Positions 2,611-63,499 of a stretch of 64,000 nt of DNA are shown here, one piece after another (positions within the stretch are counted from its first letter, which is position 1; every line of letters starts with the position of its first letter). A program made the translations under genes and the position numbers. A model generated the notes under the pieces. It did not search any database. It was not told where the DNA came from and saw only the letters and a list, made by a program, of their open reading frames with translations. The stretch is from Patescibacteria group bacterium (lineage in GTDB: Bacteria; Patescibacteriota; Patescibacteriia; Magasanikbacterales; GWA2-37-8): contig SCQK01000014.1 in the NCBI GenBank assembly GCA_004321885.1, positions 64,001 through 128,000 of the forward strand, in the 5' to 3' direction.

Positions 2611-2650
2611 CCCCACCCAACCTCCCCCTTTTAAGGGGGGAGGGGAGGAG
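2611..2650. repeat. family-A palindromic repeat (CCTCCCCCTTTTAAGGGGGGAGG)
   Basis: Perfect inverted repeat just upstream of pilT. Consensus CCTCCCCTTwTAAGGGGAGG recurs at 15 or more sites. Confidence 0.7.
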
Positions 2651-2656
2651 AAACCT

Positions 2657-3688
2657 ATGAACATAGAATCATATTTCAAGGAAGCCATAAAACAGGACGC
2701 GTCGGATTTGCATTTGGTGGGCGGGGAACTGCCGCGCCTGCGCGTGGAAGGCGAGCTCAAAGAGCTTTCCGACAAGCCGCTGAATAATAAAGAACTGGAG
2801 ACCGCGATTTACACTCTCATCTCCAAAGCCCAGCAAGATAGGTATGAGGAAGACAAGGAACTGGACTTTAGCTATTCCGTGGACCAGACCCGCTTCCGCG
2901 TGAACTTGCACCAGCAGGAAGAAAACATCGGCCTGGCCGCCCGCCTGATTCCCAAAACCATTCCCAAACCAGAAGACTTGCACTTTGAACCAACGCTCTC
3001 CGAACTCACCAAACTGATGGACGGTTTGATACTGGTCACCGGTCCCACGGGTTGCGGCAAATCCACCACCATTGCCAGCCTGATTGAAGAGATAAACAAA
3101 AGCCGCCAGGCGCACATTGTGACCGTGGAAGACCCGATAGAATTTTTGTTTGAAGATAAAAAAAGTTTGATAGAACAGCGCGAGGTGGGCACGGACACGA
3201 AATCGTTTGCCAACGCCCTGAAGTATGTGCTGCGCCAGGACCCGAACGTGATATTCGTGGGCGAAATGCGCGACCCCGAGACAATTTCCACGGTGCTGAC
3301 CGCGGCCGAAACCGGCCACCTGGTTTTTTCTACCCTGCACACGCCCAGCGCGGCCGAGGCCGTGGAGCGCATTGTGGACGTGTTTGAGGGCGGCCGGCAA
3401 AAACAGGTTTTGATTCAGCTGTCGTCGGTACTGCGGGCCGTGGTGGCCCAGCAATTACTGCCGGCCAAAGACGGCGGCCGCGTGCCGGCGCGCGAGATTT
3501 TGATAAACAATTCGGCCGTTTCCAACCTCATCCGCGAAAACAATATCAACCAGATAAAATCTTCCATCCAAACCGGCGCCAAAGACGGCATGGTGACCAT
3601 GGAAAATTCCATCAAGCAATTGCTGAAAGAGGGCTGGATTACCGAGGATACAGCCGAGAAAAGAGCGGGCAAGGCGCGGAGGGTGTAA
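2657..3688 (+). CDS. pilT: type IV pilus twitching-motility ATPase PilT
   Basis: Walker A GPTGCGKSTT. PilT/PilU family motifs VEDPIEF and the His box LVFSTLHT are present. About 343 aa from the internal ATG at 2657; the upstream ORF extension is repeat-encoded. Confidence 0.85.
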   Translation: MNIESYFKEAIKQDASDLHLVGGELPRLRVEGELKELSDKPLNNKELETAIYTLISKAQQDRYEEDKELDFSYSVDQTRFRVNLHQQEENIGLAARLIPKTIPKPEDLHFEPTLSELTKLMDGLILVTGPTGCGKSTTIASLIEEINKSRQAHIVTVEDPIEFLFEDKKSLIEQREVGTDTKSFANALKYVLRQDPNVIFVGEMRDPETISTVLTAAETGHLVFSTLHTPSAAEAVERIVDVFEGGRQKQVLIQLSSVLRAVVAQQLLPAKDGGRVPAREILINNSAVSNLIRENNINQIKSSIQTGAKDGMVTMENSIKQLLKEGWITEDTAEKRAGKARRV

Positions 3689-3802
3689 ATGGATATGGAG
3701 ATGGAAATAAGTTACTCGTGAAAATTGTATTTGGGTTTGTATTTTGGTATAATGAAAGCAGAGGGGAGTTTTAATTTACCGCCAGTGGCGGGTAAAAAAT
3801 AT

Positions 3803-4312
3803 ATGCGCTTGAGAGTCATAATTTTGGCGTTGGTTTTGTTGGTCGCGGGGTTGCTGGCGGTTTTCGCTGGTTATGGATGGTTTTGGGAAAAGCAAAAACG
3901 GGTGGCGGCCGGCACGGCGCGGCCCACGTTTCCATACGGCGATTATTCGCTGGAAGAATTGGCGAAATTGTACCCGCAGACCGTGAACGAGAACGTGCCC
4001 ACCAAACAGGCGCCCGAGGAAACGCACGCGAAGTTTGTGTCTGCGTTGAAAGCGGGAAAAATTGATGAGGCAGTGGAGTGTTGTTTTAGGAAAGGGGATT
4101 GGGGGAAGATGAAAGAAGGATTGAAGAGGGTGAGGGATAAAGGCGAAATGGGCCAGATGATTAAGGATTTGGATGCGGCGATTAAACCTGATTTTGTAGG
4201 AGATACAAAGGCGAGTTATACCTATATCGTTTTAGAGAACGGAAAAAAGATTGGTAATGTTATGACTTTTATAAAAAACATTCAGGGTATCTGGTTGATA
4301 GAGTCATTGTAA
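3803..4312 (+). CDS. hypothetical membrane-anchored protein
   Basis: ATG at 3803 (MRLRVIILALVLLVAGLLAV TM anchor). No recognisable domain. Confidence 0.5.
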   Translation: MRLRVIILALVLLVAGLLAVFAGYGWFWEKQKRVAAGTARPTFPYGDYSLEELAKLYPQTVNENVPTKQAPEETHAKFVSALKAGKIDEAVECCFRKGDWGKMKEGLKRVRDKGEMGQMIKDLDAAIKPDFVGDTKASYTYIVLENGKKIGNVMTFIKNIQGIWLIESL

Positions 4313-4327
4313 TTACCCATTCTTAAT

Positions 4328-4348
4328 CCTCCCCTTGTAAAGAGGAGG
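4328..4348. repeat. family-A palindromic repeat (CCTCCCCTTGTAAAGAGGAGG)
   Basis: Inverted repeat in the intergenic region upstream of the large secreted-protein gene. Confidence 0.6.
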
Positions 4349-4361
4349 GTAATACAGCAAT

Positions 4362-7300
4362 ATGCGAAGAGCGAAAATAATATTTTTCATTATTATCTTC
4401 GCCGCGTTCAGCTCGGCCGCCTTTGGCGGTCGTGTTTTGTCTTTTGACACCAATATCGCTCATCCAAACATCGCGACATTGGCCGTAAAGCTTTACAATG
4501 AGAATTTTGACCCGGATTTAACCGAGGAACAGACGCGTTGGATAGAGCAGGGAGCTGTTGCCGAGGACACGCCCAACCGGTGGTACAACCATTTTTACGA
4601 CCCGGTCTACAATCGTGGCATCTGGTTTGGCAAACAACATTTATCAGCCAAAAATTGGGCTGTTAATCCCCGAGCTCAAACTGGTTTTGCCTTGGGCGAC
4701 AAGAGCTGGCAAAGAGCGCTTGATGATTTTAGAAATAGTGATGAGGAAAAGGCATACAGGGCCCTGGGGCATATTATTCACCTTATTTCAGATATGGCTG
4801 TGCCGGCGCATACCCGAGACGACATTCATCCGCTCGGCGATTCGTTTGAGCAATTTGTGAAAAAGAATTGGGCCAGCGCGACAAAGAATTTGCGCTATGG
4901 AATGATATCTGTATCTGATTTAGATTCAGCTTTTGATTCTGTGGCCAATTATTCAAACAATAATTTTTATAGTGATGATACGATTGAAAATAAAAAATAT
5001 CAGAATCCAGATTTGAATCACATTATACTAAAATATGTGGAAGTTGGAAATGGCATTTCTTATAAATTTTTAGTCAATTCAGTTGGTGGTCAAGAAAGTT
5101 TGCTTTGTAGAACTAATAGCAATAAGAATTGGTTAGACACTCTTGGGGATGACATTCTAAAAGAGTGCAAAGTTGGTGATGATCTCGTTCTCACCGACTA
5201 CTCCCGCCACCTGCTCCCAAAAGCCATCGGTTACAGCGCCGGAATTATTAAACTATTTTTTGACCAAGCCAAGAGTGATAAGGAAGTGGGTAATTTGCCC
5301 GGCAAAAGAACTAGTTTTTCCGGATACCTTGATCAATTTCTTGGTTTCGCTGTCTCGGGAGCGGAAAAATTATACAGCGTGATTAAGATAGCGTTAGGAA
5401 TAGAGCCGGCTTATTCCGAGGGAAGCGCGGAGATTGAGGAACAAGCGCCCTCCCTCCCGCCAGAGGCAGGCAAGCATCAAGGGGAGGGAACGACCACAAC
5501 CACACCAACCACGCCAACCACGACCAACGTCGCGCAGACCACGACCAAACCCAAACCCCCCGCCACCATAAAAAAAGCGGTCGGGAGAAAGACCGGGGCG
5601 TCTGGCGCGCCGGTCGCTGGCTCCATAGTCCCCGACTTAGTCGGGGCTGTGGAGCCCAATGCCAGCACCCTGGCTCCACAGCCTCCTGCGGGGGACAATG
5701 GAGCCAGCCAAGAAGGAACGACGACCACGCCTGTGTATTTTCCTCCATCGTCAAGAGACGGGGGAGCGTATCCGCCAAATACCCCTCCCCTAATAGGGGA
5801 GGGAGATGTTGTGCCTACCACCACCCCGACACCCACCACCACCCCGTCTTCTACAACTACCCCTTCGTCCACCACCACCCCAACCCCCTCCCCCACCACC
5901 ACTCCCACCAGCACTCCGGCTCTGCCACCGCCACCGCTCGTCATCAGCGAAATCGCCTGGGCCGGCACCTCGGCCGCCAGGTCCAACAACGAATGGCTGG
6001 AGCTTTACAACAACTCCACCTCGTCAATAGATTTCACCTCGGGCTGGAAAATTTTTGTTTCCGGCGCCCAGCTCAACATCTCCAATTTTGTTAATCCAGT
6101 CATTTTACCAAAAACATATTACCTGTTGGAACGCACCGACGATTTTACGGTCAAAGAAATTTCCGCGGACGCGATTTACACCGGCGCCCTAAACAATAAT
6201 GGCGCGAAAGTGGAACTCGTCAATCCAAGCGGAGAAACCATAGACACCGTGGACGGCTCCTCGGGCTGGTTCGCGGGTCAGGCCAGTCCCAGTTACGCTA
6301 GTATGGAAAGAAAAGACCTCACCGCCAGCGGTACGAGTCCCGGCAACTGGCAATCCAGCATTGGCGGGCGCGCCACTGGCACGAGCGATGAAATGCCGCC
6401 CAAGCCCATCATGGGCTCGCCCAAACGCCCCAATTTCGGCTACATTGTGCTTACTGGTACCCAAGCCCAAACCACCCGCACACTCACCACAGACAACAGT
6501 CCCTATCTTTTGTGGAGTTACACTATTCCAGCCGGCTTTACATTAAACATCAATCCCGGCGTGGTGATAAAAAGTTACACCCAAAGCGCGGTGATGATTG
6601 TAGATGGGACGCTGAATGTTGGCGGGGGAGACAATAAAGTCATCTTCACCTCGGGCAAAGACCAGTCTTTCACCAGTCCCGACCTCAACCTGATAGACAT
6701 CAATTATCTTTGGACAACTCCCGGGCCGGCTGAAAAAGATTGGCAGGGGCTGTGGTTCAAGCCCGGCTCCCAGGGCAACATCGCCAATACAGAAATCAGA
6801 TACGCGGGCAAAGAGTTTTACCCCACCGGAGGCCCGGCCATGTCCCAGGGCATTCGCGCCGAATCCGGGCTTTCCCTATCAAACTCCACCATCGCCAACT
6901 CCGGCTCCGCGCTTATCTTTCTCCAAAATGCTTCTTCCACCATTACTAACACCAACTTCACCGGCTCCGATCTGGCCATAGAAGCCAACAATTCCCGGCT
7001 CACAATCAACGGCGCGCACTTCACGGGCTTTGGCTCACAGGGCCCTTTGCAAATCAAAGACGCCTGGCCCGAATTTTCCAATCTCACCTACACCACCGGC
7101 ACTGTGCCTTATGCCCGTTTGTACATGGTAAAAACCAGCGCCCCGCAGACCACGGCCAAAAAAGAAATCAATTACCTCTTTGACAACATTGAAGTGGCGT
7201 CTTCCACCACCTTAAACATTGAACCCGGCGCCAACGTCAAAATGACCAACAGCTCCATACTCACGGTCAATGGCGTTCTCAATGCCAATGGCACGCCCAC

Positions 7301-7805: not shown

Positions 7806-9298
7806 ATAAAATTTTCAAAAAAATTCAGGCAGTGGCCCAAAAAAATAAGACCCCGTGCTATGTGGTGGGCGGTTTTGTGCGCGATATGCTGATGGACAAG
7901 GCGCGGGAAAAAGACGTGGATTTTGTGATTTTGGGAAGCGGGCTGGGGTTTGCCAAAAAATTTGACCAGGCCATGAAGCAAGAGGGGAGTTTAATTGAGT
8001 TTCCGGATTTTGACACGGCGCGGTATATTTTGACCCCTTCTAAATCCTCCCCTTATCAAGGGGAGGATAACGAGCAAATCGTGCTGGAGTTCGCGGGCGC
8101 GCGAGGGGAAGAATATGACGAGAAAAGCCGCAAGCCCAGGGTAAAGCCGGCCACGTTAAAACAAGATTTAGAGCGCCGCGATTTTACCATCAACGCGATG
8201 GCCATGAGTATTGACGACTACCCCTCCGGCCGTCCGCCACAGGGCGGACGGCCGCCTCCCCTTATAAAGGGGAGGCTGATAGACCCGTTCGGCGGGCAGG
8301 AAGATTTGAAAAATAAAATTCTGCGCACGCCGCTTGACCCGGACAAAATATTTTCCGAGGACCCTTTGCGCATGATGCGCGCCGCGCGCTTCGCGGGCCA
8401 GCTTGGTTTTGCCATAGACACTTTTGCTTTGCAGGCCATTTACCGCAACCGCGAGCGCCTGAAAATCGTTTCGGCCGAGCGCGTGCAAGAGGAGCTGTTA
8501 AAAATGCTTTCCACGCCCGAGCCATCTATTTGTCTGGCTCTGCTTTTTCAAACCCACCTGTTGGATTTGGTGTTGCCAGAGGTGGCCAAGCTGGACGGGG
8601 TGGAAGAAATTTACGGCCACCAGCACAAAAACAATTTATCACACACCTTTAAAGTGGTGGACAATATCGCCGAGCGCTCGCCCAAAGTCATGTTGCGCTT
8701 TGCCGGCCTGCTGCACGACATCGGCAAGGCGTCCACTAAAAAATTTATTCCGCGTCAGGGCTGGACTTTTTACCAGCACGAGCACATGGGCAAAAAAATG
8801 GTTTATCAAATCGGCAAGCGCCTGCGCTTGTCCACGGACCACACGGATTATTTGGCCAAAATGGTGCGCTGGCACCAGCAGCCGATAAGCCTGATGGACA
8901 AGGGCATCACGGATTCGGCGGTGCGTCGCCTGATTGTGAATTTGGGTGATGAGTTGGAAGATTTGTTGATACTTGGCCGGAGCGACATTACCACGGGCAA
9001 TCCGTTGAAAAAAGAAAAACGCCTGGGCAATTACGACCGACTGGAAAAGCGCATTGCCGAGGTTTTGGAAAAAGATAAATTGCGCGCCTTTCAGTCGCCG
9101 GTGCGCGGGGAAGAAATCATGAAAGAGTGCGGCTTGAAAGCCGGGCCGACAGTGGGAAAAATAAAAGACGCGATAGAGGAGGCCATTCTTGACGGAATCA
9201 TACCAAATGAGTATGATAAAGCGAGGGAGTACTTGTTTGAAATTAAGAATAAGTATCTGGAAAAAGCCCAGGATTGGGAAAGAGTGAAAAATATATGA
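7796..9298 (+). CDS. cca: CCA-adding tRNA nucleotidyltransferase / poly(A) polymerase family with HD domain
   Basis: GGFVRDMLM...DVDFV is the class II nucleotidyltransferase head. The HD motif LLHDIGK is present. 500 aa. Two in-frame palindromic insertions lie at 8044..8068 and 8226..8276. Confidence 0.85.
   Translation: MVLDKIFKKIQAVAQKNKTPCYVVGGFVRDMLMDKAREKDVDFVILGSGLGFAKKFDQAMKQEGSLIEFPDFDTARYILTPSKSSPYQGEDNEQIVLEFAGARGEEYDEKSRKPRVKPATLKQDLERRDFTINAMAMSIDDYPSGRPPQGGRPPPLIKGRLIDPFGGQEDLKNKILRTPLDPDKIFSEDPLRMMRAARFAGQLGFAIDTFALQAIYRNRERLKIVSAERVQEELLKMLSTPEPSICLALLFQTHLLDLVLPEVAKLDGVEEIYGHQHKNNLSHTFKVVDNIAERSPKVMLRFAGLLHDIGKASTKKFIPRQGWTFYQHEHMGKKMVYQIGKRLRLSTDHTDYLAKMVRWHQQPISLMDKGITDSAVRRLIVNLGDELEDLLILGRSDITTGNPLKKEKRLGNYDRLEKRIAEVLEKDKLRAFQSPVRGEEIMKECGLKAGPTVGKIKDAIEEAILDGIIPNEYDKAREYLFEIKNKYLEKAQDWERVKNI
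8226..8276. repeat. composite palindromic insertion (GGCCGTCCGCC..GGCGGACGGCC plus family-A CCTCCCCTTATAAAGGGGAGG) in-frame within cca
   Basis: Encodes PSGRPPQGGRPPPLIKGRL. Two adjacent perfect inverted repeats. Confidence 0.7.
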
Positions 9299-11022
9299 AA
9301 AGAAAATATTGGATTATCGGGGGAATAGTCGTGTTGGCCATCGGCGGCCTGGTTTATCGCGGCTACAAAAAAAGCCATCCGCCGGCGCAATACGAAACAG
9401 TGAAAATTCAGCGCGGGGATTTGAAACAGACCGTGGAGGTAACCGGCAAGGTGGAGGCAAACGATGATTTGTCTTTGCGTTTTGAGGTGCCTGGCACAGT
9501 GGGCAATGTGGCGGTAAAAGAAGGGCAGAAGGTTAAAAAAGGGCAGACACTGGCGTCTTTGCGTCTGGCCGACCTCAACGCGGCCGTGGCCCAGGCCGCG
9601 GCCAATTTGAACCAAAAATTAGCCGGCGCCACGCAGTCGGAACGGGATTATTACAAGGCCGTGATGGAACAGGCCCAGGCCGACTGGGATAAGGCCAAAG
9701 TGGACACGGCCGCCAGTATTGCCACAGCCGAGTCCGCGTACATCACCGCCAAAAATAATCTTAAGCTGGCCGAGGGCGGGGAAAACAGCCTCATTGTAAA
9801 TAACGCCTACGACAACGCCATCATCACGGCTCAAACTTCCCTTTCGGTTTTAGACGACGGCCTCACCCAGGCCGACAATATCTTGGGCATAGACAACACT
9901 CTGGCCAACGACAGTTTTGAAAGTTATTTATCTTTGCTTGACCTAAACAAATTAAATTTAGCAAAATCCTCTTATGCCACTGCCAAAGAAGCCAAGGCCG
10001 CGGCGCGCGCCGCGATTTCGGCTCTGGCCGTAAAAGTTTCCAGTCATAGCGATGTGGACAGCGCGCTCGTCAAAGCCGCCGATGCCGCGACCAGGATGAA
10101 TACCTTGCTTTCGCAGGTCTCGGAAGTTTTATACAACACCGCGCCCATGGGTTCGCTGACACAAGCCTCTTTGGACGCCAAAAAAACTACTATTGAAACC
10201 ACGCGCGCCAGCGTCAATGCCCAGTATAAAAAAATAGTGGAGGCCCAGCAGGCTATCGTGGACGCCAAGAGCAGTTATTCAAACTACCAGGTGGCCTATG
10301 ATAAAGCGGCCAAAGATTTAGCTGATGCCAAAGCCGCCGCCGAGAGCGCCCTTAAAATAAAAGAAGCGCTGTACAACCAGGCGTACGCGAATTGGCAGAA
10401 TAAAACTAGCCCCACCCGCGCCGTGGACGTGGCCGCCTATCGCGCCGCTCTGGCCCAGGCCGCGGCCAACAGAAACAAGGCTATCATCGCCGCGCCCATA
10501 GACGGCCAGGTGGCCAAGATAAACAAAAAAGTCGGCGAGCTGGTAACCTCGGCCGACGTGATGATAAATTTGATATCCCCGCATTTTGTGATAAAGGTGG
10601 ATGTGCCCGAGACCGATGTTTCCAAGCTGACCGTGGGCGACCAGGCGGCGATAACCTTGGACGCCTGGGGCAGTGACACAAAATTTTCCGGCGGGGTAAC
10701 GGCAATAGAATCCAATTCCACCGAGATTCAGGATGTGGTTTATTACAAGGTTAAAATTCGCATCATGCCGGCCAGCGCGCCGGTTAAAGCCGGCATGACC
10801 GCGAATATTACCGTGGACACGGATGCGCGCGCCGGAGTTTTGTTTGTGCCCCTACGCTCGGTGCGCACCGATGTGGAAGACAAGCGCTTTGTGAAGGTGT
10901 TAGAGAACGGCGAAGAGAAAGACGTGTACGTGAGATTGGGTTTGAAAGCGAATGAGGGGAAGGTGGAAATTTTAGAGGGGCTGACCGAGGGGCAGGAAGT
11001 GATTCTCTCCATAAAAAAATAA
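9295..11022 (+). CDS. HlyD-family efflux transporter periplasmic adaptor subunit (MacA-like)
   Basis: N-terminal TM anchor, a long Ala-rich coiled coil and a C-terminal beta-barrel. It sits upstream of the ABC ATPase and two FtsX-type permeases. Confidence 0.8.
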   Translation: MKRKYWIIGGIVVLAIGGLVYRGYKKSHPPAQYETVKIQRGDLKQTVEVTGKVEANDDLSLRFEVPGTVGNVAVKEGQKVKKGQTLASLRLADLNAAVAQAAANLNQKLAGATQSERDYYKAVMEQAQADWDKAKVDTAASIATAESAYITAKNNLKLAEGGENSLIVNNAYDNAIITAQTSLSVLDDGLTQADNILGIDNTLANDSFESYLSLLDLNKLNLAKSSYATAKEAKAAARAAISALAVKVSSHSDVDSALVKAADAATRMNTLLSQVSEVLYNTAPMGSLTQASLDAKKTTIETTRASVNAQYKKIVEAQQAIVDAKSSYSNYQVAYDKAAKDLADAKAAAESALKIKEALYNQAYANWQNKTSPTRAVDVAAYRAALAQAAANRNKAIIAAPIDGQVAKINKKVGELVTSADVMINLISPHFVIKVDVPETDVSKLTVGDQAAITLDAWGSDTKFSGGVTAIESNSTEIQDVVYYKVKIRIMPASAPVKAGMTANITVDTDARAGVLFVPLRSVRTDVEDKRFVKVLENGEEKDVYVRLGLKANEGKVEILEGLTEGQEVILSIKK

Positions 11023-11023
11023 A

Positions 11024-11074
11024 CCCCACCCTGCCACCACACCAAAGATTTTGGTGTGGTGGCAGGGGGAGGGG
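11024..11074. repeat. family-B palindromic repeat (CCACCACACCAAAGATTTTGGTGTGGTGG)
   Basis: Perfect inverted repeat between the adaptor and the ATPase. Relatives are at 26630/26728, 41395 and 58424. Confidence 0.7.
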
Positions 11075-11081
11075 TATTTTT

Positions 11082-14332: not shown

Positions 14333-16147
14333 ATGACCGACACTCAAGCCATCAAAGACCGGCTGGATATTGTGCAAATCATCGGCGAATATCTGCAGTT
14401 GAAAAAAGCCGGGGCCAACTGGAAGGCCAACTGCCCATTTCATCAGGAGAAAACCCCGTCTTTTATGGTGCACCCGGAAAAGCAGATATTTCATTGCTTT
14501 GGCTGCGGCAAAGGCGGGGATGTTTTTACCTTTGTGCAGGAAATGGAAGGGTTTGATTTTCCCGAAGCCCTGAAATTTTTGGCTGACCGCGCCGGGGTGA
14601 AGATAGACACGTATCGCAGTGAAATAGACAAAAGCCAGCGCAACCGGATTTTGGAAATCAACAACAAGGCCGCGTATTTTTTTCATCATTTTTTACTGGA
14701 AATGCCCGGGGCGCAAAAGGCCCGCGATTATTTAACGGAAAGAAAATTAAAACCCGAAACAATAGAAGAATGGCAGGTGGGCTTTGTGCCTGACCAGTGG
14801 GACTTGCTTACGCAATATTTATTAAAAAAAGGATTTGGCATAGATGATTTGGTTTTAGCGGGGTTGACCATAAAAAGAGAAGGGGCCAGCTTGTACTCGG
14901 GCAAGGGTTTTTACGACCGTTTTCGCGGTCGCATCATGTTTCCCATTTGGGACGCGCACGATAATGTCGTCGGTTTTACGGGCAGGATTTTGGTGGAAAC
15001 CGAACATTCCGGCGGCAAGTACGTCAATACTCCCCAAACCCTGGTTTATGATAAGTCACGCGTGCTTTACGGCATAAACAAGGCCAAACAAGAAATAAAA
15101 GCCAAAGATTTGGCTGTGCTAGTGGAAGGACAAATGGACGTCATCGCTTGCCATCAGGCCGGCATGAAAAATGTCTTCGCGGTTTCGGGCACGGCCCTGA
15201 CTGCGGAGCAGATAAAATTAATAAAGCGATACACCAACAACGCGGCCTTTGCTTTTGACGTGGACGCGGCCGGGCAAAACGCGGCCAAGCGAGGGATAGA
15301 CGCGGCCATAGAACAAGGCTTGAACACAAAAATTGTTCAACTACCCGAAGGCGCCGGCAAAGACGCGGATGAGTGTATAAAAGCAAATTCACAAATTTGG
15401 TTCAAGGCTGTGGAACAAGCCAAGGATGTGATGCAATGGCTGTTTGAAAAAAATTTGGCCGGGGTGGATATAGTCGACCCCAAGCAAAAACAGAGAGCCG
15501 GGCACAATTTACTCATAGAAATCAGCCGTTTGCCTTATGCTTTGGAACGCGACCATTGGCTAAAAGTATTGGCTGAGCGCCTGCGTGTGGACGAGGAAGT
15601 ATTGAGAGAAGAAATGAAGAGCGCGGCCAAAGACGCGGCCAAAGAAGACAGGCGCGGCGGTTCCCCTCCCATTGATAAGAAGAGGGATGGGGAGGGGTCT
15701 GTGAACACATTAGTTGTTCAAACCCGCTATGACCTGCTCCTGCAGAATCTGTGGGCTTTGCTTCTTAAATACCCCTCGCTCATTAGCGCGTTTTGGAGCT
15801 CGCTGAAAGAGGACTATTTTTCCGGCACAGGGTTTGGATTGCTTTACGATTTGGCGAAAAAGAGGTATAATACCGGCAGTGTGTCGCCCGAGGATTTGAG
15901 GGCTGATTTTGGCAACCAAGAGCAAAATTTTATTGATGTTTTATTGCTCAAGGCAGACACCATTTATGGCGATTACAAAGAGAGTGAGAGCGCGAAAGAA
16001 ATTGAATTGATTTTGGCCGAGTTAAATAAAAGCTGGGTGAAAAACAAGCGTGAACAGCTGATGGAAAAATTGAAAGAAGCGCAAAAAAACGGGGATTTGG
16101 GCGAGGTTAAAGATATTTTGTATAAAATTATTGAGTTAAACGAATAA
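14333..16147 (+). CDS. dnaG: DNA primase DnaG
   Basis: CHC2 zinc finger CPFHQEKTPSF...HCFGCGKGGD. TOPRIM EGQMDVIA. ATG at 14333. One in-frame family-A insertion at 15663..15697. Confidence 0.9.
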   Translation: MTDTQAIKDRLDIVQIIGEYLQLKKAGANWKANCPFHQEKTPSFMVHPEKQIFHCFGCGKGGDVFTFVQEMEGFDFPEALKFLADRAGVKIDTYRSEIDKSQRNRILEINNKAAYFFHHFLLEMPGAQKARDYLTERKLKPETIEEWQVGFVPDQWDLLTQYLLKKGFGIDDLVLAGLTIKREGASLYSGKGFYDRFRGRIMFPIWDAHDNVVGFTGRILVETEHSGGKYVNTPQTLVYDKSRVLYGINKAKQEIKAKDLAVLVEGQMDVIACHQAGMKNVFAVSGTALTAEQIKLIKRYTNNAAFAFDVDAAGQNAAKRGIDAAIEQGLNTKIVQLPEGAGKDADECIKANSQIWFKAVEQAKDVMQWLFEKNLAGVDIVDPKQKQRAGHNLLIEISRLPYALERDHWLKVLAERLRVDEEVLREEMKSAAKDAAKEDRRGGSPPIDKKRDGEGSVNTLVVQTRYDLLLQNLWALLLKYPSLISAFWSSLKEDYFSGTGFGLLYDLAKKRYNTGSVSPEDLRADFGNQEQNFIDVLLLKADTIYGDYKESESAKEIELILAELNKSWVKNKREQLMEKLKEAQKNGDLGEVKDILYKIIELNE

Positions 16148-22280: not shown

Positions 22281-22299
22281 TGTGACCCGGCTGGGATTT
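22281..22299 (-). repeat. duplicated 3' end of tRNA-Lys (T-arm 3' strand plus acceptor 3' strand)
   Basis: TGTGACCCGGCTGGGATTT equals bases 22471..22489 at the 3' end of the intact tRNA-Lys, which lies 175 bp away. Confidence 0.6.
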
Positions 22300-22473
22300 G
22301 GCCTCGCCTCTCGCTCGCTTCCGCTCGCTCGGGCTGGCCACCGCCTCGCGGTTTGGCTCGCCCATAAGCTCGCCAAACATCGCTCCGGCGTTCGAATCCC
22401 ACCGCGAGCAAAACTATTTGCTCGCTGCCGGTTCCCAAAATTCAAATCCGCCTAATTGCGGATTTTAATTTTG

Positions 22474-22546
22474 TGACCCGGCTGGGATTCGAACCCAGGA
22501 CCTCTTCCTTAAAAGGGAATTGCTCTACCAACTGAGCTACCGGGCC
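22474..22546 (-). tRNA. tRNA-Lys(UUU)
   Basis: Manual cloverleaf: acceptor GGCCCGG/CCGGGUC, D-arm GCUC-AGUUGGUA-GAGC, anticodon loop CUUUUAA, T-arm CUGGG-UUCGAAU-CCCAG, discriminator A. Confidence 0.85.
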
Positions 22547-22634: not shown

Positions 22635-23207
22635 ATGCTCAATAAAAAGTATTTTCAAAAAGTCCGGGGAGATTTGTTAAATTATGCCGGCGTGCACCGT
22701 GAGGTGATAAAAATTTGCGGTGATGCCCAGCATTTAGCCAAAAAAGCCATTTTTGCCATGCAAAGAGACGGGGGCAAAGACGCGGACAAGCTTTTGGAGC
22801 AGGCGCGCGCGCTTTTGGCCGGTCTGCAAAAAAAGCACGCCAAAGACAGCCGCGTGTTTGACGAGGGCGCCTACAAAGCGGCTATGGAGGAGTTCGCGGA
22901 AGCGGCGCTGTTTTCGGAATATTTGCGGGGCGAAGAAATGGGTGAAATAAAAAATTTAAACGTCAGTTCGGAAAGTTTCGTCGGCGGTTTGTGTGATGTG
23001 CCGGGCGAACTCTTGCGTTATGCCATCAAGTCGGCCACGGAAAAGGATTTCAAAAAAGTAAAAAAATGTTTTGACGCGGCCGATGCTGTTTTGCGTGAAT
23101 TAATGGACATGGACTTGACCGGATACAACCGCCAGAAATTTGACCAGGCCAAACAGGCCTGGTACAAGCTGGAGCAGGTGGCGTATGAGGTGAGCATGAA
23201 GGGGTGA
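22635..23207 (+). CDS. hypothetical alpha-helical protein
   Basis: 190 aa. No confident family assignment. Confidence 0.5.
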   Translation: MLNKKYFQKVRGDLLNYAGVHREVIKICGDAQHLAKKAIFAMQRDGGKDADKLLEQARALLAGLQKKHAKDSRVFDEGAYKAAMEEFAEAALFSEYLRGEEMGEIKNLNVSSESFVGGLCDVPGELLRYAIKSATEKDFKKVKKCFDAADAVLRELMDMDLTGYNRQKFDQAKQAWYKLEQVAYEVSMKG

Positions 23208-42218: not shown

Positions 42219-42220
42219 CA

Positions 42221-42350
42221 AAAACAAAAATACTGGTAATATCCAGTATTTTTGCTTTTGCTCGGAATACACGAAAAAATACGAACGGATTTGGGCGAAT
42301 TTTAGGGCGCGGGCGAAATTCCCTCCCCACACCCCTTCCTTTCGCCCGCG
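42221..42350. repeat. left ~130-bp inverted repeat (includes tRNA terminator hairpin AAAAATACTGGTAATATCCAGTATTTTT)
   Basis: About 88% identical to the reverse complement of 47421..47550. Confidence 0.7.
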
Positions 42351-47301: not shown

Positions 47302-47420
47302 AAAGCTGCGTTTCCGCCAAAGCCGAGCGAAGCTCGGTATCCCGCCGCAACAAGTAGCGTCGGGATGAAAAACTGGAAATCGTCATTCGTCGGAGATCCC
47401 TCCGCCCAAGGCGGGCAGGC

Positions 47421-47550
47421 ACCGCGGGCGGAAGGAAGGGGTGTGGGGAGGGAATTCCGCCCGCGCCCTAAAATTCGCCCAAATCCGTTCGTATCTTTTC
47501 ATAAGTCCCGAGCAAAAGTAAAAATACTGGTAATATCCAGTATTTTTTGT
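47421..47550. repeat. right ~130-bp inverted repeat (inverted copy of 42221..42350)
   Basis: CCGCGCCCTAAAATTCGCCCAAATCCGTTCGTAT...AAAAATACTGGTAATATCCAGTATTTTTT. The hairpin loop is retained in the same plus-strand orientation. Confidence 0.7.
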
Positions 47551-50573: not shown

Positions 50574-50638
50574 CAATAAAAATATTTTTTAATAAATAAA
50601 CTGGATTTTCCCGACTTAGTCGGGGGAATGACAAGTGT

Positions 50639-53515: not shown

Positions 53516-53626
53516 CGAGTAAAAAAACAAGGCCTTGGGATAATCCCCAAGGCCTTTTGGTTGTGCCTGCCCGTGGCAGGCAGGGGCCGCCCCGCGTGAA
53601 GAAGCGGGGCGGCCATGAGGCGCTGG
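53516..53626. terminator. bidirectional terminator hairpin cluster between convergent genes
   Basis: AAGGCCTTGGGATAATCCCCAAGGCCTTTT, GCCTGCCCGTGGCAGGCAGG and GGCCGCCCCGCGTGAAGAAGCGGGGCGGCC. Confidence 0.55.
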
Positions 53627-54319
53627 TCAGGTACAACCCGGGATCGGGTTGTTTTTGCACCCGATGCTGGGAATGCACTCGTTGGTGGTGCAGGCATTCC
53701 CATCATCGCAGAAGTCCGGACAAGAGCCGCAACTTCCGGCGATACTGGTCCAGGTGCAAAATCCGTTGACGCACCCGACTTGGGTACACCCCACGTAGTA
53801 GTTGACGCATGGGGTCGTCGGGAGCGAACAAGCGACCTTGGCGCAAGCGCCTGACACACAGTGCAGCCCCTTGTTACAGAAGCTGTTGTTGCCGCTACAC
53901 TTGCCGCTGGGCAGGCAGTTGTAGCACCGCGCGCCCTCGGAGCCCTGGGCCGGCTGGACATCGGGCTTGACCACGATGCTGTCCGGCGGCGGTTTCTTGT
54001 CTGGCGCCGGCTTGTCCGGCAGTGGCTTAGTGTCGTGCGTCGGCTTGGTGTCTGGCGTGCCCTTGTCCGGGCCAAGGTCCGCGCCCAGCTCGCGGCCTGC
54101 TTCACGCTTCGGCGTGAACGCGTCAGCCGCCATGTCGGGCATGCCGCCCTCCACGCTGGCTGCGCTGTCTTGCCAGCTGTCAGCGACAGCGGCGTCAATG
54201 CCGCTGTCCAGCCGGTTCTTGTCGGCCTGGGCGTCCACCGACGCCGCCGGGTTGTAGCCAAAGAGCAGGTGGCACCCGCCGGCGCCCAGCGCCAGCATTG
54301 CGATGAAAAGAGCCTTCAT
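53627..54319 (-). CDS. cysteine-rich secreted lipoprotein (Cys-rich repeat modules), GC-rich
   Basis: Lipobox MLALGAGGC. Pro/Asp/Lys-rich linker. Repeated CxxCxxGxC / DGNACTTNEC modules. Local GC is markedly higher than the flanks. Confidence 0.55.
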   Translation of the reverse strand: MKALFIAMLALGAGGCHLLFGYNPAASVDAQADKNRLDSGIDAAVADSWQDSAASVEGGMPDMAADAFTPKREAGRELGADLGPDKGTPDTKPTHDTKPLPDKPAPDKKPPPDSIVVKPDVQPAQGSEGARCYNCLPSGKCSGNNSFCNKGLHCVSGACAKVACSLPTTPCVNYYVGCTQVGCVNGFCTWTSIAGSCGSCPDFCDDGNACTTNECIPSIGCKNNPIPGCT

Positions 54320-54490: not shown

Positions 54491-55093
54491 ATGGTAAATA
54501 TGGTAAAATTGTTGGCGATGGATTCCGGCTCGGGGGCCGGAATGACACGACTGGTTATGTTTGAAAAAATTGTTCAGTTGGATAAATATCTAAATCAGGA
54601 GTTCGTCGGTTCCGGCGGAAAATTTTTGCAGGGATTGGGAATTTTTATTGATTCGGCTTCGGGCATGGTTGTTTTTGGCGTCATCGGCCTAATCGCGGCG
54701 CTGTATTTTTGCAAAACAAAAAAATGGCGCGAGCTGGCCTTGTTTTTCGCGGCCGGGGCCGGCGCGGTTTTTTGGGAATTATTTTTGAAATGGGTTTTTG
54801 GCCGGCCGCGCCCGGGCGCGCTGTCGCCGACCGATGGTTTTAGTTTCCCCAGCGGGCACGCGACTGTTTCCCTGGCTGTCTTTGGCGCTATAATATATTT
54901 GTTTGCTCCGCGCATAAAAAATAAAAATTGGCGCAAGATTTTTATCGGCGCTTGCGCTCTGTTTATTCTTCTCATCGGCGTCAGCCGCGTGTATCTGGGG
55001 GTGCATTGGTTTAGCGATGTAGTGGCCGGCTTTGCTCTCGGTTTAGTTTGGCTTTGGCTGGTAATTTTTGGCTTCAAACGATTTTGGCGATAG
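54491..55093 (+). CDS. PAP2-family phosphatase (undecaprenyl-diphosphatase / phosphatidic acid phosphatase type 2)
   Basis: PAP2 motifs KWVFGRPRP, PSGHAT, SRVYLGVHWFSDVVAG. Confidence 0.75.
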   Translation: MVNMVKLLAMDSGSGAGMTRLVMFEKIVQLDKYLNQEFVGSGGKFLQGLGIFIDSASGMVVFGVIGLIAALYFCKTKKWRELALFFAAGAGAVFWELFLKWVFGRPRPGALSPTDGFSFPSGHATVSLAVFGAIIYLFAPRIKNKNWRKIFIGACALFILLIGVSRVYLGVHWFSDVVAGFALGLVWLWLVIFGFKRFWR

Positions 55094-55098: not shown

Positions 55099-55144
55099 CC
55101 CCTCCCTTTAACCCTCCCCTTAATAAGGGGAGGGAGGGGTGGGG
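55099..55144. repeat. family-A palindromic repeats (tandem), intergenic
   Basis: CCCCTCCCTTTAACCCTCCCCTTAATAAGGGGAGGGAGGGGTGGGG. Confidence 0.65.
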
Positions 55145-57580: not shown

Positions 57581-58132
57581 ATGTCAATAAAATTTTTATT
57601 ACATGCCTGCTGCGCGCCGTGCAGTATCGCGGTGATAGATGAGCTGAAATCAAAGTTCGTTTTGACCGTGTTTTTTTACAATCCCAACATCCATCCGGAA
57701 GAAGAATACAAAAAAAGAAAAGCCGAATTGGTGAAAGTTTGTAAAGAATGGGGCGTGCCGATGGTGGACATGGATTACGACGCAGACCGGTGGCACAAGA
57801 TCGTGGGTGAAGGCCTGTCTGCCGAGGGCGAGGGCGGCACGCGCTGTTTCTTGTGTTTCAAATTTCGTTTAGCCAAGGTGGCCGATTATGCCGCCAAAAA
57901 CTGTTTTCAGTATTTCGGCACCTCGCTTTCCAGCGGCCGCAATAAAAACGCCGAGGTAATAAACGACGTTGGCCGGTCTTTCGCGGCGCATTATAAAATA
58001 AAATACTACGCCGCTGATTGGAAAAAAGGCGGACGGCAGGAAAAGGCGCGCCAGATGGCGGCCGAGCGGGGGATTTACCGCCAGGATTATTGCGGCTGTG
58101 TTTATTCTTTTCGCGACAAGCGCGAGGAATAG
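57581..58132 (+). CDS. queH: epoxyqueuosine reductase QueH (DUF208)
   Basis: LLHACCAPCS N-terminal motif and downstream Cys cluster (CFLCFKFR...CGC). Confidence 0.8.
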   Translation: MSIKFLLHACCAPCSIAVIDELKSKFVLTVFFYNPNIHPEEEYKKRKAELVKVCKEWGVPMVDMDYDADRWHKIVGEGLSAEGEGGTRCFLCFKFRLAKVADYAAKNCFQYFGTSLSSGRNKNAEVINDVGRSFAAHYKIKYYAADWKKGGRQEKARQMAAERGIYRQDYCGCVYSFRDKREE

Positions 58133-58153
58133 GCGTGCGCCCTCCTCCCCCTT

Positions 58154-58708
58154 TTAGAGCCTGTCCCGAACTTGTTTCGGGAGGGAGGATAGAGGAGGGA
58201 GTATGTGTATTTTTCTCTTGTTCCCTCCCGCGTATTCAATTCTGACGGTTATTATTTTCGGCCCTTGGCCGATATTTTTCAAAAGCTCTTTTATTTTCTC
58301 CGGCCACTCAATCGCGCAAATCGTATCCGGCCTGCCCAAATAATCCAGCGCGCCGATTTCCACAAGTTCGTGCTCATTTTTTAGCCGGTAGGTATCTATA
58401 TGGACGAATTTTTGTGTCCCCCTGCCCCCACACCAAAATTTTTGGTGTGGGGGCCTGCCCGAGGGGGACTTTGAGGGGGGTGGGAGCAAGTACACATTCA
58501 TCAACGCGAACGTCGGACTGGTAATTTTTTCTTTGACGCCCAAGCCGGCGGCAATGCCTTTCACCAATGCAGTTTTGCCCGCGCCCAGTTCGCCGTAAAG
58601 CAATAAAATATCGCCGCCGCGCAATTTTCGCGCCAAAGCCGCGCCAAACGCAAATGTTTCTTTTTCGTTTTTCGTGATAATTTTTTGATTGTTTTGACGG
58701 GTTGACAT
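58154..58708 (-). CDS. tsaE: tRNA threonylcarbamoyladenosine biosynthesis protein TsaE
   Basis: P-loop GELGAGKT and SPTF motif. ATG at 58706-58708. Contains a ~35-aa in-frame repeat-encoded insert (58415..58485). Confidence 0.8.
   Translation of the reverse strand: MSTRQNNQKIITKNEKETFAFGAALARKLRGGDILLLYGELGAGKTALVKGIAAGLGVKEKITSPTFALMNVYLLPPPSKSPSGRPPHQKFWCGGRGTQKFVHIDTYRLKNEHELVEIGALDYLGRPDTICAIEWPEKIKELLKNIGQGPKIITVRIEYAGGNKRKIHILPPLSSLPKQVRDRL
58424..58454. repeat. family-B palindromic repeat in-frame within tsaE (GCCCCCACACCAAAATTTTTGGTGTGGGGGC)
   Basis: Encodes PPHQKFWCGG within TsaE. Perfect 14-bp arms. Confidence 0.7.
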
Positions 58709-59097: not shown

Positions 59098-59132
59098 CTG
59101 GATTCCGGTCGCCTGCGACGACCGGAATGACA
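59098..59132. repeat. family-D palindromic element (inverted orientation)
   Basis: CTGGATTCCGGTCGCCTGCGACGACCGGAATGACA. Confidence 0.7.
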
Positions 59133-62038: not shown

Positions 62039-62159
62039 AATGACCAATTTCAAATTACAAATGTCAAATTAATGTCAAAATTACAATGTCCAATTTGATA
62101 TTAAAATTAGTCATTGGACATTGATTGGAAATTGGAAATTTGGATTTTGAAATTTTCGT

Positions 62160-62855
62160 ATGCTGTCTTACATCTGGTTCACTTTCCTGTATCAGCCGCT
62201 GTTTAATGCCTTGGTTTGGCTTTACGTAAACGTGGCGCATCAAAATTTGGGCTGGGCTGTGGTTTGGCTGACAATTTTTTTGCGCGTTCTGCTTTTGCCG
62301 TTCACAATAATTTCTTACCGCGACGTTGGGCGCCAGGAAAAAGCCCAGCTGGAGGCCTTAAAAGCGGCGCGGGCGTACCAGGGCGATTTAGTGGCGCAGA
62401 AAGAAATTATCCGCGATATCATGAGGAAAAACCGCATTTCGCCCTGGGCCAAGGTTTTGACTTTGGGCGTTCAGCTTTTGGTTTTGGTCCTGCTCTATCA
62501 GGTTTTCGTGCGCGGCATTACCGGCGAGAAGGTCATTAAAATTCTTTACCCGAGCATTGATTTTCCGGGCAAAATCAACACTGAATTTTACGGTTTTGAC
62601 ATCGGCGCTAGGCATGATTTTATCTGGGCCGGCGCGGCCGCGCTCTATTTGTTTATTTCCATAATGTTCGCCAGCCGGCATCGCAAGCATTGGGACGGCG
62701 CTTCGGCCGTCTATGTGGTGCTTTTTCCGCTGGCCACTTTTTTCGCGCTTTGGCTTTTGCCTATGGTTAAATCGCTCTTCATTTTGACAACCATGATTTT
62801 TTCTGATACAATATCCGTGTTAAAAGCGCTTTTATTCCCCGCTAAAAAAACCTAG
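62160..62855 (+). CDS. yidC: YidC/Oxa1-family membrane protein insertase (short form)
   Basis: About 5 TMs with the conserved LLLPFTI segment. 231 aa. Confidence 0.7.
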   Translation: MLSYIWFTFLYQPLFNALVWLYVNVAHQNLGWAVVWLTIFLRVLLLPFTIISYRDVGRQEKAQLEALKAARAYQGDLVAQKEIIRDIMRKNRISPWAKVLTLGVQLLVLVLLYQVFVRGITGEKVIKILYPSIDFPGKINTEFYGFDIGARHDFIWAGAAALYLFISIMFASRHRKHWDGASAVYVVLFPLATFFALWLLPMVKSLFILTTMIFSDTISVLKALLFPAKKT

Positions 62856-62861
62856 TATAAT

Positions 62862-62889
62862 TGTCATTCCCGCGAAAGCGGGAATCCAG
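62862..62889. repeat. family-D palindromic element (TGTCATTCCCGCGAAAGCGGGAATCCAG)
   Basis: Minimal form of family D. Intergenic. Confidence 0.7.
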
Positions 62890-62894
62890 CAAAT

Positions 62895-63467
62895 ATGTCC
62901 GCCGACTCATTGGACAAACTGATGTATTCGTTCGTGATGGAGGATGTTTTGAAAGGCATTTTTATCACAGTGCCGCCCGGGTATGTGGCGTGCGTTTACG
63001 ATTACGGCCGGGGAGTGCTGAAAAAAGTTTTGACTCCGGGTTTGCATTTGAAAATTCCGTTTTGGCAGAAGGCCAAATTGTTTAACACACAGACCTTGGA
63101 ATACAGCATTTCGCGCAACTTTAATCCCGAGCACGAAAAGTCTTTGGGCGATATTCCCATCGCGGCCGTAACCAAAGACAGCCAGCGCGTGGGCGTGGAA
63201 GGCACAATTTTACTTCGCCTGGACGTGCACCAGATTCCCAGCATTTGGCAGACCATTGGCGAGGATTTTGTGGTCAAGATAGTGCGGCCCAGCATACGTA
63301 GCCGCATCCGCATGGTCTTTTCGCACTATGATTTTCAGGAAATTATCACGGTGAAGCGCGACGCCGTGGAAATGGAACTAAAAAACGAGCTTGAGCGCAT
63401 CTTTTACGCGCGCGGCATTTACGTGGAGAATGTATTGCTCTCCGAGATTTCACAGATAAGGCAGTAA
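62895..63467 (+). CDS. SPFH/Band-7 domain protein
   Basis: The prohibitin-homology core fits the PGYVACVYDYGRGV...LKIPFWQKAKLF pattern. Confidence 0.65.
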   Translation: MSADSLDKLMYSFVMEDVLKGIFITVPPGYVACVYDYGRGVLKKVLTPGLHLKIPFWQKAKLFNTQTLEYSISRNFNPEHEKSLGDIPIAAVTKDSQRVGVEGTILLRLDVHQIPSIWQTIGEDFVVKIVRPSIRSRIRMVFSHYDFQEIITVKRDAVEMELKNELERIFYARGIYVENVLLSEISQIRQ

Positions 63468-63468
63468 T

Positions 63469-63499
63469 GTCATTCTGGCTCGGGAGCCAGAATCCATCA
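63469..63499. repeat. family-D variant palindromic element (TGTCATTCTGGCTCGGGAGCCAGAATCCATC)
   Basis: Same outer termini with a different palindromic core. Confidence 0.6.

Follow-up and report, generated by a model that had tools for sequence, protein, structure and literature searches.

Rickettsia palindromic elements (RPEs) in their classical form are about 100–150 bp long and add 30–50 residues to the proteins that contain them. Like the protein-coding palindromic repeats of Wolbachia, they lie in-frame in conserved housekeeping genes, give rise to lineage-specific peptides at tolerated sites and also occur as non-coding copies. The small dispersed repeats of cyanobacteria are palindromes of about 20–30 nt that are nested and occasionally found inside genes; to our knowledge, they have no association with tRNA genes or GIY-YIG nucleases. 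The GTAG-type repetitive extragenic palindromes (REPs) and REPINs, mobilised by RAYT tyrosine transposases, are abundant, short, imperfect and mostly extragenic palindromes that fold as DNA or RNA hairpins. A further REP class is defined by a CGTC head, an 8–9 bp stem starting with A-T pairs, a loop of 4–5 nt and a CCA tail (PMC3733652). It includes dRS3 of Neisseria (CGTC-1) as well as RPE-6 (CGTC-1) and RPE-4 (CGTC-4) of R. conorii (Di Nocera et al., 2013; PMC3733652). REPs were also reported inside genes, the CGTC type was reported to have no evident dedicated transposase, and Patescibacteria were not among the five phyla listed in 2013 (PMC3733652). In this study, we analysed 64,000 nucleotides of a Patescibacteria metagenome-assembled genome (Magasanikbacterales; GCA_004321885.1, contig SCQK01000014.1, positions 64,001 to 128,000; "the window" in the following), in which a first-pass annotation had noticed several families of short, RPE-like palindromes. 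The window holds at least six families of miniature palindromes, and these probably arose by a lineage-specific expansion of elements of the REP/RPE kind, inserted at the DNA level and filtered by selection. REP/RPE-type elements are thereby present in a new phylum, where they are unusually small, modular and frequent inside genes. A literature search found no specific description of palindromic repeats in Patescibacteria, or of their peptide or DNA strings, and REP/RPE biology is here extended to this group.

All four families of the first pass, A to D, were located, either exactly at the positions assigned to them or no more than about 15 nt away. The literal consensus proposed for family A had no match at up to two mismatches because the loop varies in length, whereas its recurring arms lie far above chance. 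Searched by stem-based patterns instead, family A gave nine matches in the window for CTCCCC-N3-9-GGGGAG (0.02 expected) and 11 for CCCCTTNNNAAGGGG (0.29 expected), with degenerate copies at 4328, 15663, 20985 and 40631. Family B has three solitary loci in addition to arms that flank a tRNA-Gly gene, and family C has four loci, with none expected in either case. For family D, the pattern GTCATTCY-N6-36-RGAATCCA has eight exact matches against 0.00 expected, and degenerate copies start at 2465 and 50601. Direct-repeat analysis brought out a fifth family, E (CCGCCAAAGGCGGGCAGGC; 2480, 5457, 20592, 47402 and also 30857), a long form of family A that begins with TACCCCCACCCnnCCTCCCCC, and outer "G" arms around the C core (GGCTCCAYAG..CTRTGGAGCC). 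The first-pass list was therefore an undercount: it lacked family E, the D copy at 54518, a third insert in guaA, a fourth in the methylthiotransferase gene (MtaB) and a palindrome of 115 nt in the latter. Its impression that palindromes saturate the window was borne out by a palindrome scan independent of families, which counted 54 perfect GC-rich hairpins (stem of at least 7, loop of up to 9) against a mean of 12.7 (range 7–20) in 20 dinucleotide shuffles. Most elements measure 17–45 nt and one about 115 nt. Single-strand folding of representative elements yielded stable structures, with z-scores of −3.6 to −6.6. The closest relative for which DNA is available (GuaA 71% identical by BLASTP, 74% in the alignment) has two hairpins in 21.8 kb compared with 54 in 64 kb, i.e., about one ninth of the density of the window. 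The hairpin burst in the host genome is recent and lineage-specific. In one place (53527–53652), four different strong hairpins with unique stems stand back to back directly 3' of the stop codon of an M4 peptidase gene, a layout that recalls mosaic intergenic repeat arrays.

Many of the repeats lie in conserved genes. At least 12 copies had been placed within open reading frames (ORFs) without disruption of the frame. A codon-by-codon check of cca, dnaG, guaA, tsaE and the genes of MtaB, an FkbM-type methyltransferase and a 1147-aa lamin-tail-domain (LTD) protein confirmed this and raised the number to about 17–19 elements in these seven genes, all of which are read through in-frame and without a stop. 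That the peptides are specific to the lineage was established with alignments of orthologues or solved structures for GuaA, MtaB, FkbM, TsaE and the CCA-adding enzyme; in dnaG and the LTD gene, the same repeat sequences are in-frame in the codon view alone. In GuaA, three inserts stand out against 29 orthologues, all encoded on the minus strand. A family C core in G arms (30512–30552; AGSIVPDLVGAVEP) and a long-form family A element (30394–30431; PLPLYKGEA) occupy two variable loops, and both are modelled as coil by AlphaFold (mean pLDDT 83, block pLDDT about 62), the A insert between a strand and a helix. The third is a family E element (30850–30880) that forms a clean insert of 24 nt; its eight residues, PAKGGSGR, are absent from 29 of 29 orthologues although the surrounding region is otherwise fixed in length.

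MtaB (minus strand) has 443 aa instead of the typical ~398, and four insertion regions were recognised by comparison with 29 orthologues, none of which contains the inserted peptides. Solved MiaB-type structures show gaps of 6, 10 and 10 residues at the repeats. The four elements are a family E copy at 20590–20625 (CCCGCCTTTGGCGGG; SAQDGPAFGG, unique among 30 orthologues), a family A variant with CCCCCC..GGGGGG arms at 20843–20875 (PPFYSPLKKGG), a degenerate A-like palindrome at 20984–21010 (VPPSGSGGD) and the nested palindrome of about 115 nt at 21215–21341, which is RPE-sized and adds about 40 residues to the interdomain linker. The loops of the second and third are hot-spots in other lineages. 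In the nested palindrome, a search for longer-range inverted repeats found 25-nt arms (21225–21249 and 21307–21331) and an outer CATTGCG..CGCAATG; its DNA folding energy is −43 kcal/mol (z = −6). In the FkbM-type methyltransferase (35062–35150, plus strand), outer arms enclosing two family A hairpins (PPPRLPLIKGEDNFPPLDKGRARE) add about 13–17 residues relative to 22 representatives; no solved homologue of this protein was found. The CCA-adding enzyme contains a family A copy (8044–8068; SSPYQGED) and an E-like palindrome, GTCCGCC..GGCGGAC, abutting a second family A copy (8227–8275; GRPPQGGRPPPLIKGR), and alignment with solved CCA/PAP homologues leaves two 9-residue gaps exactly at these repeats. 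Similarly, a long-form family B element in tsaE (58400–58470, minus strand) encodes a 23-residue insert between conserved motifs (RPPHQKFWCGGRG), and the gap in the solved TsaE homologue coincides exactly with the repeat. DnaG has a degenerate A-like copy in its C-terminal linker (15663–15685). In the LTD protein, a family C core in G arms (5616–5708, plus strand; AGSIVPDLVGAVEP) is followed by another pair of G arms around a core of a different kind, and a family A copy encodes TPPLIGEG (5782–5804). The palindromic inserts of the LTD gene are adjoined by an 18-nt tandem periodicity (5815–5922) that encodes a Pro/Thr-rich stretch.

The corresponding loops of GuaA, MtaB and FkbM in other Patescibacteria carry different repeat-derived peptides (VILSLSKDP, VIPTEVEGSL, HCERSEAIP, FPLLRGNDT, SPLPRGEG, ILRSAQNDK, LPLGKGE and VIPVKTGIQ). 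Therefore, these loops are permissive hot-spots, the insertions are independent of each other and the phenomenon is widespread in Patescibacteria. Many orthologues differ in the length of the affected loops, and it could be argued that the peptides are ancestral, or convergent low-complexity loops, rather than insertions. This is rejected by the orthologue comparison, in which the peptides are missing from all GuaA and MtaB sequences compared, and by the coding DNA itself, a palindromic sequence that recurs at other sites, some of them non-coding; we regard an ancestral origin as highly improbable. With lineage-specific inserts in-frame in GuaA, MtaB, FkbM, TsaE and CCA, the resemblance to RPEs noted in the first pass is supported. 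The elements differ from RPEs in size, since most of them add only 6–14 residues and only the MtaB linker element reaches RPE dimensions, and in their host, which is not an obligate intracellular alphaproteobacterium. In a comparison based on CGTC-REP anatomy, a relation in sequence is limited to what family D shares with RPE-4 and RPE-6.

Alternatively, the palindromes might have formed in place, by template switching during replication or quasi-palindrome correction at GC-rich sites, with no copying between loci. Many hairpins are indeed singletons with unique stems, for example those of the cluster at 53527–53652, and core inversions inside the arms of family D are the type of event that hairpin-mediated strand switching produces. 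Yet stems, often of 36–42 nt including non-palindromic flanks, are identical at unrelated loci; guaA and the LTD gene share an identical 42-nt copy in the same reading frame. In addition, the asymmetric flanks of family D, GTC and CCAG, would not be created by local hairpin formation, and there are clean insertions of 24 nt and 118 nt with defined ends. Local formation is therefore considered a poor explanation with little chance of being correct, and copying from place to place is preferred. The modularity described in the first pass was also seen: the arms of family D enclose C cores in opposite orientations at 40680 and 50601 and a family E element at 2465, the two A hairpins in FkbM lie within outer arms, and the linker element of MtaB has three levels. 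Such nested forms suggest that hairpin tips are preferred insertion points.

Outside conserved coding regions, the distribution of the hairpins raises the question of function. Of the 54 hairpins, 23 are found in the 10% of bases that are non-coding, corresponding to an approximately 7-fold higher density in intergenic DNA, as expected from random insertion followed by a selection filter. The same enrichment would be compatible with hairpins that are mainly selected cis-elements, i.e., terminators, mRNA-stabilising stem-loops or partners in Shine-Dalgarno/anti-Shine-Dalgarno pairing, instead of (formerly) selfish insertions. Three family A copies have their 3' arm GGGGAGG 7–12 nt before a start codon. 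Upstream of pilT, this is the 3' arm plus GGAGGAG of a long-form copy (TACCCCCACCCnnCCTCCCCC..GGGGGAGG; 2608–2645), 7 nt before the ATG at 2658; upstream of the LTD gene, the arm AGAGGAGGG of a degenerate copy (4328–4350) lies 12 nt before the ATG at 4362. The third, at 41371–41429, stands side by side with a family B element upstream of the gene of a leucine-rich repeat (LRR) protein. The first pass had taken this repeat as an N-terminal extension of the LRR protein. The ATG at 41358 is preceded at a distance of 12 nt by GGGGAGAGG from the repeat as Shine-Dalgarno sequence, and the supposed extension is therefore probably 5' UTR. The analogous extension proposed for YibE/F, where an A-like element is located at the 5' end (40631–40649), is ambiguous. 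Two other family A copies follow stop codons and have a T-rich tail and a shared flank: the intergenic copy at 36758–36778, with GGGTGGGGTTTG on its 3' side, and the copy at 55111–55134, intergenic after PAP2 and continued by GGGTGGGGTTTGCTTTTTT in a terminator-like manner. Further elements outside or between genes are a family E copy at 47402–47420, intergenic and 95% identical to the one at 2480, a long-form family B copy between HlyD-like and ABC genes (11015–11081), flanked by a AAACCCCACCC module, and a composite palindrome across the convergent ends of QueH and TsaE (58128–58211), with CCCTCCTC..GAGGAGGG arms and an inner TCCCGAAC..TTTCGGGA hairpin. The stable folding of all elements tested would also suit selected cis-elements. 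However, such functions make no sense for the copies within coding sequences of unrelated housekeeping genes, the closest relative does without the hairpins, one family B element interrupts a tRNA gene, and only about half of the family D copies point in the same direction as the next gene downstream. A role as cis-elements is thus an improbable account of the families as a whole, and insertion followed by selection remains the better one.

Family D can be compared most closely with a described element. It is an oriented element, (T)GTC|ATTCC..GGAAT|CCA(G/T), with asymmetric conserved flanks GTC and CCAG, and all copies in the window are intergenic. On the plus strand, copies are located at 39467–39516 (long composite core), 40680–40712 (family C core), 41702–41738, 41817–41845 (directly after a promoter-like TTGACA-17-TATAAT site), 62862–62889 (GTCATTCCCGCGAAAGCGGGAATCCAG) and 63468–63497 (followed by a terminator-like hairpin). 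On the minus strand, they are found at 2462–2512 (family E core at 2480–2498), 50601–50633 (degenerate arms around a family C core in opposite orientation), 54518–54547 (5' end of PAP2) and 59098–59132 (after tRNA-Pro(ggg), with a core that is the inverse of the 41702 core). The head ends in GTC in nine of ten copies (TGTC in eight, AGTC in one, CGTC in none; the tenth has TATC), every stem of 8–12 bp starts with ATTC(C/T) and ends with (A/G)GAAT, and each of the ten has a CCAG or CCAT tail. The loop measures 3–7 nt in simple copies, and in four copies a second palindrome (C, E or other) forms the core. Like the CGTC REPs, family D has an AT-first stem and an unpaired CCA tail, as well as an unpaired head ending in GTC in nine copies and a short loop in the simple ones, and no dedicated transposase is evident for it either. 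It differs in the TGTC head of eight copies, in its variable loops and cores, and in its occurrence as single copies: no head-to-head dimers were seen, and the copies at 41702 and 41817, the only two that are close to each other, have the same orientation and are separated by 115 nt. The core of the copy at 62862 is identical to a Neisseria dRS3 sequence, which was the sole literature match for that string. By its sequence anatomy, family D fits the CGTC-type REP superfamily as a TGTC-headed relative. For this family, the comparison with RPEs is therefore partly one of membership, and for the other families it is one of behaviour. In two pairs of D copies (41704–41736 with 59099–59131, and 40681–40711 with 50601–50633), the same asymmetric flanks enclose mutually reverse-complementary cores, which implies either insertion in both orientations or flipping by hairpin-mediated inversion. 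Family D was also considered as a constant marker of transcript 5' ends and rejected, given that only about half of the copies share the orientation of the downstream gene. The GTAG REPs differ in several respects: no family in the window has a GTAG head, a scan of 57 ORFs of the window found neither a RAYT nor an IS200/IS605 gene, many copies are intragenic, and the only nuclease linked to a hairpin family is of the GIY-YIG type rather than a Y1 transposase. In both cases, one proposed arrangement is that of an enzyme gene between hairpins of its own. The cyanobacterial small dispersed repeats differ in sequence and phylum.

A second type of behaviour was observed for family B. At 26596–26787 (minus strand), 118 nt interrupt a tRNA-Gly(CCC) gene within its anticodon loop. 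Perfect B arms of 15 nt (26635–26649 and 26736–26750) enclose an intact tRNA-Gly(CCC) gene (26655–26726), which is the only one of the two that is reported by ARAGORN and Rfam. Removal in silico of the 118 nt, comprising the arms, the inner tRNA and one 4-nt CAAG, restores a canonical tRNA-Gly of 74 nt. Therefore, family B is an insertion element, which at this site carries a replacement for the tRNA gene that it interrupts. It is a pair of terminal inverted repeats able to carry tRNA cargo. tRNA genes within terminal inverted repeats recur in other Patescibacteria, with arms of 19–20 nt in loci L045 and L055, and one of them follows directly after a GIY-YIG ORF. With arms of 15 nt around the tRNA and of 15–19 nt in the solitary copies, family B falls in the range of 15–30 bp that characterises the terminal inverted repeats of miniature inverted-repeat transposable elements (MITEs) such as Correia/NEMIS, RUP and Nezha. 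One copy encloses the tRNA cargo and is flanked by a possible 4-nt duplication, and the solitary copies have the appearance of bare inverted repeats. In contrast to usual MITEs of 70–300 bp, solitary B copies measure 31–43 nt, and no parent insertion sequence or cognate transposase was found in the window.

A possible enzyme came to light in two cassettes that combine a GIY-YIG ORF with tRNA genes. In a survey of 2006, prokaryotic Slx1-like proteins were described as minimal, stand-alone GIY-YIG proteins of unknown role and treated as vertically inherited repair proteins and not as mobile; a fusion to the tRNA D-loop methyltransferase TrmH was described, and tRNA-gene cassettes were not mentioned (PMC1564403). 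In phage T4, SegB is a free-standing GIY-YIG homing endonuclease in a tRNA gene cluster (PMC2330249). Cassette 1 (2035–2458, minus strand; just downstream of the D copy at 2462–2512) consists of a 5' tRNA-Pro copy (2458–2401), an ORF of 88 aa (2384–2118) and an intact tRNA-Pro(cgg) gene (2108–2035); in the tRNA copy, the anticodon arm is replaced by the hairpin CCCCGACGGTACGTCGGGG, which has the stem of family C. In cassette 2 (41863–42219, plus strand), with the D copy at 41817 before it and the one at 41702 upstream of its promoter-like site, a 5' tRNA-Asn copy (41863–41901) has the hairpin TCCGCCAGCCGGCGGA in its D-loop and is followed by an ORF (41908–42156) and an intact tRNA-Asn gene (42147–42219), in which the stop codon of the ORF, TAG, forms positions 8–10. 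Family D itself was tried as a cassette component and rejected, as the D-type copies of 80 other loci do not lie close to it. Both ORFs (88 and 82 aa) belong to Pfam PF01541, and the GIY-YIG residues Y18, G20, R28 and E64 are invariant in 36 sequences. They have the catalytic fold of the Slx1-like/UPF0213 family without an auxiliary domain. An AF2 model (pLDDT 93.5) matched the structure-specific endonuclease Slx1 (7cq3, 4xlg) and BH0048 (1zg2, UPF0213) best, with probability 1.00 and ahead of UvrC and I-TevI, and a match to the NCBIfam model of group I intron endonucleases was far below its cutoff. The cassette nuclease resembles SegB-type homing endonucleases in being lodged among tRNA genes with signs of duplicative spread. 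Unlike the Seg and Tev enzymes, it comprises the catalytic domain only and lacks an added DNA-binding domain that would read sequence. No description of the GIY-YIG/tRNA cassette, its 5' tRNA copy or the CCGAC..GTCGG hairpins was found in the searchable literature.

In a scan for homologues with one genome per species, 80 loci were collected from many classes of Patescibacteria as well as Omnitrophota, Planctomycetota, Elusimicrobia and others. At 61 of them, a tRNA gene on the same strand lies −15 to +60 nt from the stop codon, with at least 11 tRNA identities represented. Among these 61 loci, the TAG stop coincides with tRNA positions 8–10 in 25 and an exact copy of the tRNA 5' end lies upstream of the ORF in at least 31; in 28 of the 31, this copy starts within 4 nt of tRNA position +1. 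CCGAC and GTCGG both occur within 170 nt upstream at 57 of 79 loci, compared with 2.1% of background windows. CCGAC..GTCGG hairpins, GIY-YIG ORFs and tRNA genes are thus statistically linked. The double-hairpin module is also found away from the cassette, in-frame in the RuvX of another genome, at a position that corresponds to a gap of 9 residues in the B. subtilis structure. A metagenomic contig carries a complete tRNA-like gene in which the exact C core serves as anticodon arm; the T-loop of this gene is in turn interrupted by a GIY-YIG ORF together with tRNA-Arg, and 43 nt are duplicated. In locus L054, about 500 nt without a long ORF (4600–5120), upstream of a MurJ-like gene, are dense in CCGAC..GTCGG hairpins; no tRNA or GIY-YIG gene lies within 4 kb of this stretch, which may be a structured RNA gene invaded by such hairpins. 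Most homologues are on very short contigs, and eight sampled contexts share the cassette architecture, including tandem cassettes. The tandem arrangement and the frequent contig breaks suggest duplicative spread of the cassette. That repeats disturb assemblies, with homologous cassettes often on very short contigs or at contig ends, might prompt the objection that the palindromes are artefacts of assembly or binning. The copies studied here sit internally on a contig of 159 kb, which excludes the contig-end artefact considered in the first pass, reading frames are kept in seven genes, and equivalent inserts are present in independently assembled orthologues. The probability of an artefact is practically negligible.

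Taken as elements of the REP/RPE kind, the palindromes would be copied from place to place as DNA-level insertions, and selection would then purge harmful copies. The remaining copies are found in intergenic DNA, at 5' UTRs, gene ends and terminator-like positions, and in the few protein loops able to accommodate 6–40 extra residues, the intragenic ones always in-frame and free of stop codons. The C-rich arms are read as Pro and the G-rich arms as Gly, Glu or Arg, which suits surface loops. Preferential insertion into the tips of other hairpins would produce the nested, modular forms, and some copies have probably been co-opted, such as the GGGGAGG arm of family A as a Shine-Dalgarno sequence. 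We infer that the elements are mobile now or were so recently, and that they enter at the tips of hairpins or cloverleaves. It is tempting to speculate about the role of the Slx1-like nuclease. Potentially, it nicks extruded hairpins or cloverleaves and thereby drives the spread of at least family C, an idea that is possible although we would not expect it to hold. Somewhat more doubtful still is its generalisation, in which the minimal Slx1-like GIY-YIG nuclease would mobilise a class of REP/RPE-like hairpin repeats. The nuclease would recognise extruded DNA hairpins and the cloverleaf of single-stranded tRNA-gene DNA, and would cut at the acceptor-stem base as well as in the D-, anticodon or T-loop. 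Such cutting would explain the 5' tRNA copies that run from +1 to a loop, the tandem cassettes and the CCGAC..GTCGG hairpins seeded in other hairpin tips and in protein-coding genes, and the tRNA-in-tRNA element with B arms would be a cargo-carrying relative.

Several observations speak against this picture, in its general form or in the part given to the nuclease. No transposase, RAYT or IS110 gene was found when 57 ORFs of the window were scanned against Pfam. The nearest GuaA relatives, from Ca. Magasanikbacteria and other metagenome-assembled genomes, are only about 72% identical. A target-site duplication could be assessed at a single site, the split tRNA-Gly, where the sequence is compatible with a duplicated 4-nt CAAG, but CAAGCAAG occurs in the target itself. 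GIY-YIG genes are not associated with families A, B and D, and loci that bear such genes carry 0 to 18 hairpins per 10 kb; the nuclease is therefore insufficient for the burst. The CCGCC/GGCGG stem of family E occurs in 54 background hairpins, and as a common GC-rich stem it makes the link of family E to cassette 2 weak. In metagenomes, the count of the 17-nt C core is near chance expectation among the matches listed, and many of these are ordinary terminator-like hairpins between A-runs and T-runs, as selected cis-elements would be. The 39-nt C/G element had no match in a metagenome scan. Solitary CCGAC hairpins are modestly enriched over stems of similar composition (30 vs 5–20), and CCGCC stems are commoner.

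The tRNA-carrying family B element and the Slx1-like GIY-YIG/tRNA cassette are two leads beyond the known REP/RPE kind. For the spread of palindromic repeats without a transposase, the findings offer a candidate enzyme, the 88-residue Slx1-like nuclease, together with a candidate substrate, CCCCGAC-loop-GTCGGGG and the cloverleaves of tRNA genes. If the proposal is true, this would be a previously undescribed class of structure-targeting bacterial mobile elements that repairs the tRNA gene it disrupts. Genomes of Patescibacteria are among the smallest and most streamlined, yet selfish hairpin DNA has entered essential genes, namely those of GMP synthase, the tRNA-modification enzymes MtaB and TsaE, the CCA-adding enzyme and primase. 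The repeats account for a large class of odd peptides (VIPAKAGIQ, VILSLSKD, RGND-type and PLxKGE-type) and for false N-terminal extensions in metagenome protein catalogues. The inserts mark permissive loops of conserved enzymes and call for caution in annotation and structure prediction.

The window has a G+C content of about 50%, seven tRNA genes and a typical set of Patescibacteria housekeeping genes, including those for PilT, the CCA-adding enzyme, DnaG, RpoD, MurG, MtaB, translin, GuaA, GuaB, HtrA, the FkbM-type methyltransferase, YibE/F, the LRR protein, TsaE, QueH, Gdh and YidC. As called mechanically, the ORFs of guaA (29973–32177, minus strand) and guaB (31747–33321, plus strand) overlap by 430 nt; alignments place the true start of guaA at 31802, and that of guaB is probably later too. 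The long N-terminal "extensions" of the GIY-YIG, HD domain, PAP2 and LRR proteins traverse repeats or tRNA fragments and are probably untranslated. The genes of tRNA-Lys and a Mur ligase have between them the gene of a translin-family protein (22635–23207; Pfam E = 8e-17); the family is mostly eukaryotic and archaeal. The last 17 nt of this tRNA-Lys (AATCCCAGCCGGGTCAC on the tRNA strand; 22281–22297) are repeated about 190 nt downstream (22473–22489), and the two copies resemble attachment-site repeats around a 173-nt insert, which contains a fragment like a tRNA 3' end, TTCGAATCCCACCGCGAGCA, on the opposite strand (22384–22412). Finally, a 41-nt direct repeat (93% identical; 42213–42253 and 47507–47547) that begins in the final 7 nt of tRNA-Asn brackets a 5.3-kb island of low G+C content (38–43%). 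This island encodes a Dam-type methyltransferase, a SacI-like restriction enzyme, an ECF sigma factor, a proteasome-like protein and an amidase, and looks like an element integrated at tRNA-Asn.

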